Notes under the pieces: model-generated
Seen by the model: the letters and a program-made list of their open reading frames with translations, nothing else
Told to the model about the DNA's origin: nothing
The model's database searches: none
Shown: positions 60,505-63,500 of the stretch, piece after piece
Layout of the letters: each line of letters starts with the position of its first letter
Numbering within the stretch: the stretch's first letter is position 1
Source: Candidatus Woesearchaeota archaeon
GTDB lineage: Archaea > Nanobdellota > Nanobdellia > Woesearchaeales > UBA10216
DNA: 64,000 nt
Direction of reading: 5' to 3'
NCBI GenBank assembly: GCA_016192915.1
Contig: JACPTF010000010.1
Coordinates: 48,804-112,803 of the forward strand
Position numbers and translations under genes: made by a program

Positions 60505-63500
60505 ATGGCAGAAACAGAGCTTAAGCTGAAGGTTGCGGAAGCAGTTCAGGATGACGTAAACAAGGGCATCGTCAGGATAGACACCTCCATGATGCATGAG
60601 ATAACAGTCAGGCCTGGCGACATCGTTGAGATAGAAGGAAGCCACATTACTGTTGGCATAGCAGACAGGGCATACCCTGGAGACATAGGCCTGAACATCA
60701 TAAGGATGGATGGCATAATAAGAAGGAACGCCCGCTCAGGGATAGGCGAGCTCGTAAAGATAAGGAAAGCTGACGTAAAAGGCGCTAAAAAAGTCATAAT
60801 TGCACCGGCAAGAAAAGGTGTCATGATAAGGGCATCTTCTGACATATTCAAGCAAGGCCTTCTCGGAAGGGCAGTTGTCAAGGGTGACATTGTAGCCCTG
60901 GGCGGCACCACCAGAAGAAGGACAACATTCGTCCACAGCCCCTTTGAGGAGATATTCAAGATGCTTGATGAGGTTGACGAGGACGTAATGGGCCTCGGCT
61001 TTTCCGACATCAAGTTCGTAGTTGTTGACACGCTGCCAAAAGGCGCTGTCATCATAACAGACCTCACCGAAGTCGTATTCAACCCGGAAGCAGCCGACAT
61101 GGTAGAAGAGCCCAGGCTGGAAGTCACTTACGAGGACATCGGAGGGTTGTCCGAAGAAATAAAGAAGGTCAGGGAGATGGTCGAGCTCCCGTTGAAGCAC
61201 CCAGAGATTTTCGAAAGGCTGGGAATTGACGCGCCAAAAGGAGTGCTGCTTCACGGCCCCCCCGGAACAGGCAAGACGCTCGTTGCCAAGGCTGTCGCGA
61301 ACGAAACAAACGCATACTTCACGCACATAAACGGGCCTGAAGTAATGTCCAAGTTTTATGGCCAGTCGCTGCCTCCGGATGAGAAAATCACTATAGTTGA
61401 CAATGGCCAGATTAGGAGGCTGCCTATTGGCGAAGTTGTCGATAAAGGCATGGAACATATTGAGGTTGTTTGCTTTGATGAAAATGGAAAAGTGGGAATC
61501 AACAAAGTGACCGGGCTGATAAAGCATCCACTACGCTCAAAAATACTCAAGGTAAGAACAAGAAGTGGCAGGGAGATAAGAGTAACAGACTATCATTCGC
61601 TGTTCACTTTGACTAAAAATGGGCTTGAGAGCATAAAAACTTCCGAGTTAAAGGCAGGAGAGTCGTACGTTGCAGTCCCCAAAAAAATTCCCTTTTCACC
61701 TGTGCAGATTTACAAGTTAAACCTTCTGGAGAAAATAAAACACAACGACTATGGCTTAAGGGTAAGGAACGTTCAGGGCTATGTGAGGAAGGCGGTTGAG
61801 AGGATAGGCCACGATGCTGCCGCATCAATATTGGACGTTAAAAGCAAGTACCTTTACGACGTTATAAACAAAAACGTAGGAATACGCGCCAAGAATTTCA
61901 TGCAACTGATGGAAACTGCACAAATGCCTGTGCAGAACGAATTTGTGCAGCTATACACGAAAGGAAAGCCAATTCCATCCGAAATTGTGCTGACAGAGGA
62001 CTTATGCACTTTCTTTGGATTGTGGATGGCGGAAGGCTCTTACTTTGCTGGCGGCGTAAGAATCTCCATTCACAGGAAGGAAGAAAAAGTCATGGCAGAC
62101 TTGTGCGCCAAGCTATTTGGAAACCTCACGATTTACAGGAAACCAAAATCACAAGGAAGCAACATCTTGGTATGCTCAAAAGCGCTTAAAATCCTGATGA
62201 AGGACATTCTGGGCTTTAAGAGCGGTGCAAGAAACAAAGAAGTTCCGGACCTGGTTTATAACCTGCCAAAAGCGCAGCTGGCAGCATTTCTCAGGGGCTT
62301 CACGACCGGTGACGGCTCGCTAAACACCAAAACCCCGGCGCCAATGGTCGAGATATGTACAGAAAGCCCTAAACTAGCTGATGATTTGGCTTATCTTTTC
62401 CTGATGTTTGACATAGTAGTAAAGATTTACAGCAGAAAAGACAGGCCACAAAAGAGATTGTGCTTTGCGGACACGAAGAACTTCAACCTTTTCAGGCAGA
62501 TAGGCTTCTTGGACTCTGAGCGCAACTCAAAAATATTTGCGTACCTGAATGGCAGACAAATTTCGAGAAGGGACAAGGTTCCTCTCAGCGCATTAGATGC
62601 TGCCACAGCCTCAAGCGGCTACTTGCAAAGCTGGAAAGGACTTGCGTCTATAGGAGTTGAAGCTTTGCAAAAACAGATAGTTGTGACACAGCAACTGAAA
62701 GCGGTCTTAGAAAGCGATATTTACTGGGACAAGGTTTTGGAAATCACTGAAATCCATGAAAAGCCGGAATACGTTTACGACATCTCTGTAGAGCCATCGC
62801 AAAACTTCCTCGCAGGATTTGGCGGGGTGTTTGCACACAACAGCGAGCAAAACCTGCGTAAAAAATTCGAAGAAGCTGAAAAAAATGCACCTGCTATTGT
62901 TTTTATCGACGAAATAGATGCAATAGCAAGCAAAAGGGAAGAGCTTCACGGGGAAGTAGAAAGAAGGGTGGTTGCGCAGCTGCTTGCCTTGATGGACGGC
63001 CTGAAGGACAGGGGAAAGGTTGTCGTAATTGCAGCAACAAACGTCCCAAACCTGCTTGACCCTGCCTTGAGAAGGCCTGGAAGGTTTGACAGGGAGATTG
63101 AGATTGGGGTTCCAAGCAAGGAAGGCAGGCTTGACATCATGAAGATACACACGAGAAACATGCCGCTTGGCAGGACACTAGGCGACAACAAGTACGCTAT
63201 GCTCGCTGACAAGGAAAGGGAAAAGGCACTCACTGACATAGCAAGAATAACCCACGGGTTTGTCGGGGCAGACCTGGCAATGCTGTGCAAGGAAGCAGCA
63301 ATGAATGTACTAAGGAGAGTGCTGCCGGAAGTCCTGAAGCTGGAGGAAAGCGAGCCGATACCAAAGGAAGTCCTTGAGAAGATGATAGTGGAGAAGAAAG
63401 ACTTCACAGAAGCGCTAAGGGTGGTAAGGCCATCTGCGATGAGGGAAGTTCTCGTTGAGATTCCAAACATCCACTGGAAGGACATTGGCGGGCTTGAGGA

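Follow-up and report, generated by a model that had tools for sequence, protein, structure and literature searches.

Inteins that carry a LAGLIDADG homing endonuclease and reside in the ATPase core of an archaeal protein are already textbook material, and the element described here leaves the current understanding of inteins unchanged. It lies in a 64,000-nucleotide stretch of Candidatus Woesearchaeota archaeon DNA (GenBank assembly GCA_016192915.1, contig JACPTF010000010.1, positions 48,804 to 112,803 of the forward strand), which we refer to as the window, and it interrupts the first ATPase domain (D1) of a gene for a CDC48/VAT-type AAA+ unfoldase. The closest described system, both by sequence (phmmer E value, 4.6e-25) and by fold, is PI-PkoII, intein 2 of the Thermococcus kodakarensis DNA polymerase (PDB 2cw7). 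The two share the order of an N-terminal HINT segment (HINT-N), an accessory domain, a double LAGLIDADG endonuclease, and a C-terminal HINT segment (HINT-C), and the C-terminal signature of PI-PkoII, ...NFLVGFGLVYAHN, resembles that of the CDC48 intein. PI-PkoII differs in occupying another site in another host, a family B DNA polymerase, in its length of 537 amino acids (aa), the stretch that separates HINT-N from the endonuclease being longer, and in sequence, at an identity of about 22%. Its activity has been shown experimentally, whereas the CDC48 intein is known here from its sequence and a structural model.

Other well-studied inteins compare in a similar manner. The same bifunctional fold is found in TliVMA (7qss), PhoVMA (7qst), PI-PfuI (1dq3), and PI-SceI, with Foldseek E values from 2.7e-22 to 5e-11. 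Like the CDC48 intein, the archaeal VMA and RIR1 inteins and PI-SceI are located in a P-loop ATPase or nucleotide-binding core beside functional motifs; unlike it, they occupy other hosts, share only 13-20% identity with it, and use a Cys1 nucleophile (C1A mutants were crystallized) rather than the Ser1/Ser+1 pair. The archaeal MCM (CDC21) inteins likewise reside in an AAA+ hexameric motor and are clustered at conserved ATPase motifs. Several MCM intein sites lie close together, and neighboring inteins have been documented (PMC10643990). The MCM inteins differ in the AAA+ clade and the sites that they occupy, and their similarity to the CDC48 intein is remote, at the level of the HINT fold (PhoCDC21-1, 6rpq). 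Despite the similar name, CDC21 is MCM and not CDC48.

CDC48 itself has been named as an intein host: the passages on Anaeramoeba BMAN in PMC10710043 list it, with inteins at orthologous sites in bacteria or archaea. The host family is the same as ours, and the intein family described below includes archaeal and bacterial-labeled CDC48 loci. According to those passages, the singleton inteins of Anaeramoeba mostly lack an endonuclease, whereas the CDC48 intein of the window has a full one. A T. kodakarensis paper is no precedent: its intein is one of MCM, and the cdc48 start site that it treats is unrelated. We found no description of a DPANN-wide CDC48 intein family or of the pore-loop insertion site in the literature, supplementary lists not being covered. 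Similarly, NCBIfam holds no model of an intein-containing CDC48, and the intein alone matches only models of other intein-bearing proteins.

Identification of the CDC48 intein

The insert very likely belongs to the canonical class-1 inteins, with a double-motif LAGLIDADG homing endonuclease embedded in it, and lies in frame in D1 of the CDC48/VAT unfoldase (Table 1). The host gene begins with an ATG at position 60505 on the plus strand and continues for 1,165 codons, without a stop or frameshift, to the end of the window. Because this frame runs past the window end, the gene is missing from the list of open reading frames (ORFs), as the first-pass annotation, made from the letters of the window, had already pointed out. 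With the insert removed, 673 aa of the host lie within the window. The host scores 938.8 bits against the NCBIfam model of the CDC48 family, TIGR01243 (cutoff, 802.65), and matches CDC48_N, CDC48_2, two AAA domains, and AAA_lid_3 in Pfam. The layout is that of the type II AAA+ proteins CDC48, VAT, and p97, with an N-domain followed by D1 and D2, the end of D2 lying beyond the window.

Removal of the insert restores the contiguous host sequence ...MSKFYGQ^SEQNLRKKF... (a caret marks the junction). The intein-less host aligns with Thermoplasma VAT (PDB 5g4f; E value, 9e-227) without a gap at the junction, where VAT reads MSKYYGQSEQKLREIF. Three full-length orthologs that are free of inteins (P0026, P0027, and P0028) are 96%, 96%, and 94% identical to the spliced host and run uninterrupted through the junction. 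The same boundaries emerge at the nucleotide level. Contig L001 (GCA_041643025.1), which is syntenic with the window from 51.6 to 64 kb and encodes an intein-free CDC48 with 96% host protein identity, aligns by blastn with an interruption exactly at 61364/62842. The first-pass annotation had called a 492-aa LAGLIDADG intein in D1 of CDC48 with these flanks, an initial Ser, a terminal AHN, a +1 Ser, and two LAGLIDADG motifs; every one of these features is present in the translation, its coordinates are exact to the base, and the comparison with intein-free CDC48 that it proposed bears the call out.

Profile searches agree with the excision and place the match well outside what chance would give. 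The Pfam model Intein_splicing covers residues 12-492 of the insert (E value, 3.8e-24; 85.7 bits against a cutoff of 35.8), and LAGLIDADG_3 matches as well (E value, 2.5e-11; 44.1 bits). The NCBIfam models intein_Nterm and intein_Cterm are both above their cutoffs, the latter with 23.9 bits against 15.6. An AlphaFold2 model of the intein, built on 18 aligned relatives, has a mean predicted local distance difference test score (pLDDT) of 90 and a predicted template modeling score of 0.90. In this model, the beta-rich segments 1-119 and 452-491 form a HINT fold, and residues 211-400 follow the alpha-beta-beta-alpha-beta-beta-alpha order of a pseudodimeric LAGLIDADG fold. The top Foldseek matches in the PDB are all bifunctional inteins, namely, PI-PkoII (2cw7; E value, 9e-29; template modeling score, 0.74), TliVMA (E value, 2.7e-22), PI-PfuI (E value, 1.6e-19), PhoVMA, and PI-SceI. 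The mini-inteins of TFIIB (5o9i), PhoCDC21-1 (6rpq), and Pab PolII (2lcj) come next, and the LAGLIDADG meganucleases I-OnuI, I-SmaMI, I-AniI, and I-Tsp061I are also matched.

Other classes of element were considered and excluded. The conserved HN and +1 nucleophile, together with a site inside a conserved host, rule out a bacterial intein-like (BIL) or Hedgehog-type domain, and the HINT halves on both sides of the endonuclease rule out a free-standing endonuclease gene fused in frame. Opposite-strand ORFs of 51-71 aa within the intein are unsupported.

Conserved residues and predicted splicing mechanism

We identified 387 loci that encode a relative of the intein, using the intein-only alignment and one genome per GTDB species. 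All results on insertion site, conservation, and phylogeny refer to the best 80 of these 387 loci, of which 77 are complete; together with the window intein, the complete relatives form a conservation alignment of 78 sequences. The intein reads SLPPDEK...GGVFAHN and ends in H491-N492, followed by Ser+1. Every family member with a residue at the first position, 76 in all, has Ser there, and L2 and P3 are nearly invariant. Eleven further positions (T74, H77, G218, A222, G224, K291, G315, D316, D472, H491, and N492) are identical in 78/78 sequences. The E223 position holds E in 77 sequences and D in 1, and at +1, 76 have Ser and 2 have Thr. The block annotation suggested by the first-pass annotation thus yields blocks A, B, F, and G, both LAGLIDADG motifs, and Ser+1, all conserved across the family. 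Ser1 and the TxxH motif (T74-D-Y-H77) are both present, and the element is therefore a class-1 intein; classes 2 and 3 are excluded by the same two features together with the absence of a WCT triad.

Between HINT-N and the endonuclease lies a helical linker subdomain, whose helices at residues 137-147, 149-155, 160-168, and 175-184 are assigned by DSSP on the AlphaFold model with a pLDDT of 83-96. The linker has no Pfam match. Its position in the sequence alignment is that of the extra domains of PI-PkoII and PI-PfuI, and because of this correspondence, it is probably an accessory DNA-binding module.

By the established chemistry of class-1 inteins, translation would yield a CDC48 precursor about 1,330 aa long, and T74 and H77 would assist an N-to-O acyl shift at Ser1. 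Transesterification would then move the ester to Ser+1, and cyclization of Asn492, assisted by H491, would free the intein. A final O-to-N shift would join ...FYGQ-SEQN... and produce a normal CDC48. Judged by its residues, the intein would use oxygen nucleophiles at both junctions (Ser1 and Ser+1). By analogy with LAGLIDADG enzymology, the free intein would cut an intein-free CDC48 allele near the junction by means of E223 and D316 at the LAGLIDADG helix interface, and repair from the intein-bearing copy would spread the element by homing. An all-serine intein from a probably mesophilic source might serve as a redox-insensitive splicing tool, and the endonuclease would be one more candidate scaffold for meganucleases.

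Table 1. Coordinates of the CDC48 locus, its intein, and the second intein in the window
Feature	Position	Strand	Basis
N-extein, 287 aa: CDC48 N-domain and start of D1 AAA domain	60505-61365	+	Translation, Pfam, TIGR01243
D1 Walker A, GPPGTGKT	61255-61278	+	Motif in N-extein
Pore-loop-1 motif, KFYG	61351-61362	+	Alignment to VAT Tyr264/Tyr265
Intein, 492 aa, class 1, with LAGLIDADG homing endonuclease	61366-62841	+	Pfam, NCBIfam, AlphaFold, Foldseek
Ser1, codon TCG	61366-61368	+	
Block A, Ser1 nucleophile	61366-61404	+	Family alignment
Block B, T74-D-Y-H77 (TxxH)	61567-61608	+	Family alignment
Helical linker subdomain, about aa 116-204, four helices	61711-61977	+	DSSP on AlphaFold model
Helix-turn-helix-like stretch within linker	61819-61899	+	
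LAGLIDADG motif 1 (block C), GLWMAE223GS, predicted catalytic acid E223	62002-62043	+	Family alignment
LAGLIDADG motif 2 (block E), GFTTGD316GS, predicted catalytic acid D316	62278-62322	+	Family alignment
Blocks F and G (VYDISV...FAHN): D472, H491, N492	62767-62841	+	Family alignment, NCBIfam intein_Cterm (residues 469-492)
Asn492, codon AAC	62839-62841	+	
Ser+1, codon AGC	62842-62844	+	
C-extein: Ser+1, D1 Walker B, remaining D1, D2; ends at window end	62842-64000	+	Translation, gapless VAT alignment
Tract rich in A and T at third codon positions (AT3-rich), 27 codons from the 3' intein junction through D1 Walker B	62842-62922	+	Codon-position GC
D1 Walker motif in C-extein	62896-62922	+	Motif position
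D2 Walker A	63601-63624	+	Motif position
D2 equivalent site, SKWVGE^SEK, no intein	63694-63720	+	Motif position
T2SSE/VirB11-type secretion ATPase ORF, 1,274 aa	52411-56235	-	
Second intein, 514 aa, Ser1...AHN^Thr+1, LAGLIDADG; site ...ISLED^TLELP...	53218-54759	-	

Insertion site in the AAA+ unfoldase

In the alignment with VAT, the junction falls between Q267 and S268, two residues past the aromatic residues of D1 pore loop 1 and between Walker A and Walker B. VAT Tyr264/Tyr265 are the conserved, essential pore-loop-1 tyrosines of the first nucleotide-binding domain (NBD1), and Trp541/Val542 are their NBD2 counterparts (bioRxiv 10.1101/105866). An insert of 55 kDa at the pore loop should block a working unfoldase ring. 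Since the insert adjoins the pore loop between Walker A and Walker B, we infer that splicing is obligatory and must be efficient; it is probably also fast. The account of intein sites in PMC4760082 describes inteins as generally occupying functionally critical, conserved positions, with which obligatory splicing agrees.

A second intein site is present six residues upstream in related genes, where the order is ...NGPEIM^intein^SKFYGQ... (P0055 and P0020 and the N-flanks of L014, L036, L070, L076, and L081). P0055 has only a mini-intein of about 200 aa at this upstream site, and in several Woesearchaeota and Aenigmatarchaeota genes, the pore-loop peptide SK[FW]YG[QE] is bracketed by both inteins.

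It is conceivable, if rather improbable, that the endonuclease family is tuned to the sequence after AAA+ pore loop 1 (...Ar-Phi-G-[QE]^S-E...) and that splicing acts as a posttranslational gate on the assembly of the unfoldase pore. If so, tuning to the pore-loop flank would let the family colonize D1, D2, and unrelated double-AAA proteins, with a second intein family at the site six residues upstream, and the intein would be a conditional-splicing switch in an essential unfoldase of genome-reduced DPANN archaea rather than a purely selfish passenger.

Distribution and phylogeny of the intein family

When the intein alone was used as a protein query, 25 matches were obtained. Nearly all are annotated as "AAA family ATPase, partial" and belong to Woesearchaeota, Nanoarchaeota, Aenigmarchaeota, Diapherotrites, and Hadarchaeales. 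Among the best 80 loci, whose junctions we classified by the coordinates of the tblastn matches, essentially all inteins occupy the same position of an AAA domain: [K/Q][F/Y/W][Y/V/F]G[Q/E] precedes an intein that begins with S and ends with HN, and SE follows it. The question raised by the first-pass annotation, whether known CDC48 inteins share the insertion site, is thereby answered in the affirmative for many public genomes.

Three classes of host site are represented among the complete loci. The CDC48 D1 site accounts for 56, in Woesearchaeota, Nanoarchaeota, Aenigmatarchaeota, and a few contigs labeled as bacteria. Because its C-extein is truncated, L006 is counted here by its N-flank. 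The equivalent site in D2 (SKWVGE^...^SEKAIREIF) accounts for 5, in Bathyarchaeota, Methanosarcinales, Pacearchaeota, Woesearchaeota, and Nanoarchaeota. The remaining 16 are in Micrarchaeota, where the host is a membrane-anchored double-AAA protein with the intein at the equivalent site of its first AAA domain. The family is thus found beside the pore loops of both rings of the double-ring unfoldase, at paralogous positions. The D2-site inteins (L067, L068, L080, L083, and L084; P0008, P0010, P0012, P0013, and P0016) are related at 32-39% identity, form one clade, and correspond to VAT E544^S545, after Trp541/Val542. The Micrarchaeota host (L048, L051-L055, L058, L059, L061, L063-L065, L069, L071, L074, and L079) has a long hydrophobic and apparently membrane-spanning N-terminal region and two AAA domains, with no CDC48 N-domain.

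Each insertion-site class is close to monophyletic in a neighbor-joining tree of the inteins, whose deep branches follow host phyla; this indicates that switches between sites were rare. The nearest relative of the window intein is that of L005, a groundwater Candidatus Woesearchaeota, with 88-90% intein identity. Taken with the names of the nearest host proteins, this relationship assigns the window to DPANN archaea of the Woesearchaeota/Nanoarchaeota type. We also scanned IMG/VR with the intein alignment, which returned just 9 distant matches (23-35% identity) and no evidence of viral carriage.

Many contigs with a DPANN-type CDC48 and an intein are titled "uncultured Methanosarcinales," "Thiomargarita," "Actinomycetota," "Bacteriovoracaceae," or "Bipolaricaulia" (L006, L009, L012, L013, L038, L044, L081, and L082). 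Some of these are probably misbinned or mislabeled. A separate clade, marked by a distinct C-extein (SEAHLR/SEARLR), unites L038, L044, and L082, whose CDC48-like hosts could be genuinely bacterial.

For such loci (P0002, P0003, P0010, and P0013), public annotation frequently places the gene start at an internal Met just ahead of the intein (MSKYYGQSLP...) or marks the gene as "partial," and gene callers appear to split or truncate CDC48 genes that contain an intein. Once the intein is recognized, the essential CDC48 gene proves intact, and DPANN genomes are spared false calls of pseudogenes or fragments.

Mobility and selection

From the two inteins of the window, the first-pass annotation suggested an intein-rich genome. 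Both inteins stand, a genome-wide excess is unproven, and the comparison with a close relative reveals a presence/absence polymorphism at two loci: L001 lacks both inteins. At the CDC48 junction, its intein-free target reads ATGTCAAAATTTTATGGTCAA on the upstream side and AGTGAACAAAACCTTCGCAAG on the downstream side. The locus offers a clean natural example, with an intein-bearing genome and a syntenic intein-free one, two loci that differ between them, and a possible scar of co-conversion.

We compared the divergence of the intein with that of its exteins. Against L005, L006, and the Hainich alleles L003/L004, the synonymous divergence (dS) is 0.49-0.77 in the intein and 1.07-2.6 in the exteins, that is, 2-4 times lower in the intein, a contrast that is only qualitative because dS values of >1 are near saturation. 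Third-position identity to three intein-bearing relatives is likewise higher in the intein (0.67-0.73) than in the exteins (0.50-0.57), with Fisher P values of 1e-5, 2e-6, and 6e-11. A lower divergence of the intein is what horizontal spread among diverged lineages predicts, and the intein looks younger than its host gene. Both window inteins also have a lower GC content than their hosts (0.447 versus 0.51 for the CDC48 exteins and 0.422 versus 0.513 for the secretion ATPase described below).

The intein has evolved under purifying selection, with a ratio of nonsynonymous divergence (dN) to dS of 0.08-0.10 over its whole length. The LAGLIDADG core, at 0.04-0.08, is constrained as strongly as the splicing domains, and the helical linker has values of 0.14-0.23. 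Each of the 75 complete top loci retains a full-length endonuclease (479-538 aa), and none is a mini-intein derivative.

Directly 3' of the intein, the exteins contain the AT3-rich tract. Its GC content at third codon positions (GC3) is 0.26, whereas the remaining extein has 0.59 and relatives have 0.56-0.67 in these codons, and the 27-codon windows with the lowest GC3 of the entire extein all begin 1-8 codons past the junction. Third-position identity to L001 drops to 0.23-0.25 in this tract, where the window differs from both intein-free and intein-bearing relatives, which agree with each other. The tract could have been imported with the intein from an AT-richer donor by co-conversion, a suggestion for which the sampled alleles offer no matching donor.

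Besides the missing donor and the near saturation of dS, a few points weigh against reading the element as an active, mobile intein. Its splicing and endonuclease activities are predicted from conserved residues and signatures of selection, and the C-terminal end of the CDC48 gene is outside the window. In addition, the intein tree follows host phyla at a broad scale, and much of the family history may be vertical.

The most serious alternative develops this last point: the intein would still splice but be a fixed, vertically inherited passenger whose endonuclease no longer homes, either inactive or kept for some other reason, and its absences would reflect precise loss instead of a recent gain. 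The tree, which separates Woesearchaeota/Nanoarchaeota, Aenigmatarchaeota, and Micrarchaeota and keeps the site classes nearly monophyletic, is compatible with such a history, as are the distant alleles L007 and L008, which are as diverged as their host genes. We nevertheless consider it unlikely. An endonuclease released from homing is difficult to reconcile with the invariance of D316 and K291 and the single E-to-D change at E223 in 78 sequences, with the retention of the endonuclease in 75/75 complete top loci, or with the strong constraint on its LAGLIDADG core. The reduced intein dS in comparison with the three closest alleles, the lower GC content of both inteins, and the intein-free state of the closest host gene, that of L001, also count against this alternative.

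A dead insertion is far less probable still. In that case, the CDC48 gene would be a pseudogene or would encode a protein with a permanent 55-kDa insert, for which the truncation of the gene by the window end leaves some room. The 1,165-codon frame is nonetheless free of stops and frameshifts, and the exteins are 94-97% identical to an intact ortholog, with a dN of 0.017-0.036 against a dS of 0.49-0.89 relative to L001. Every splicing residue is intact and invariant, and dozens of independent genomes show this arrangement.

A chimeric join of another gene's intein into CDC48 during assembly or binning has a next to negligible probability, for although the sequence is probably from a metagenome-assembled genome and several related contigs have implausible taxonomic labels, the junctions are codon exact and in frame, about 55 independent assemblies (L005 included) have the same D1 junctions, and the D1-site inteins are a clade of their own, distinct from the other intein of the window. 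A splicing intein with a homing endonuclease thus remains our preferred reading of the element.

Second intein and neighboring genes

The first-pass annotation had also reported a large intein in a secretion ATPase of the window, and this element is confirmed on the minus strand (Table 1). Its homology to the CDC48 intein extends from end to end (27% identity; E value, 2e-48), and the two have the architecture, Ser1, and C-terminal HN in common, but the second intein differs in having Thr at +1, in residing in a different ATPase, and in falling outside the clade of CDC48-site inteins. The L001 secretion ATPase has 760 aa, and the difference from the 1,274 aa of the window ORF equals the 514 aa of the second intein; the alignment of the two breaks at 53219/54773. 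VirB11/CpaF secretion-ATPase inteins appear among the archaeal host entries of Novikova et al. (2016; PMC4760082).

A scan of the window with a hidden Markov model of the family detected no inteins beyond these two ORFs, and Pfam found none in ten other window ORFs, including that of topoisomerase VI B, a frequent intein host. The large ORFs beside the secretion ATPase (43690-52404, minus strand; 929, 547, and 743 aa) have no Pfam match at an E value of ≤1e-4, and the four ORFs between the secretion ATPase and CDC48 (56765-60421; 360, 198, 197, and 178 aa) have none at ≤1e-3. These ORFs around the secretion ATPase may be uncharacterized pilus or secretion components of DPANN archaea. A segment of about 2.2 kb that encodes a TatD DNase and a Fic protein in L001 (7315-9501) is missing from the window at 59755-59960, between the conserved membrane-protein genes and CDC48, and adds another indel to the differences between these two syntenic genomes. 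The ORFs of 198 and 197 aa resemble paralogous hydrophobic membrane proteins.

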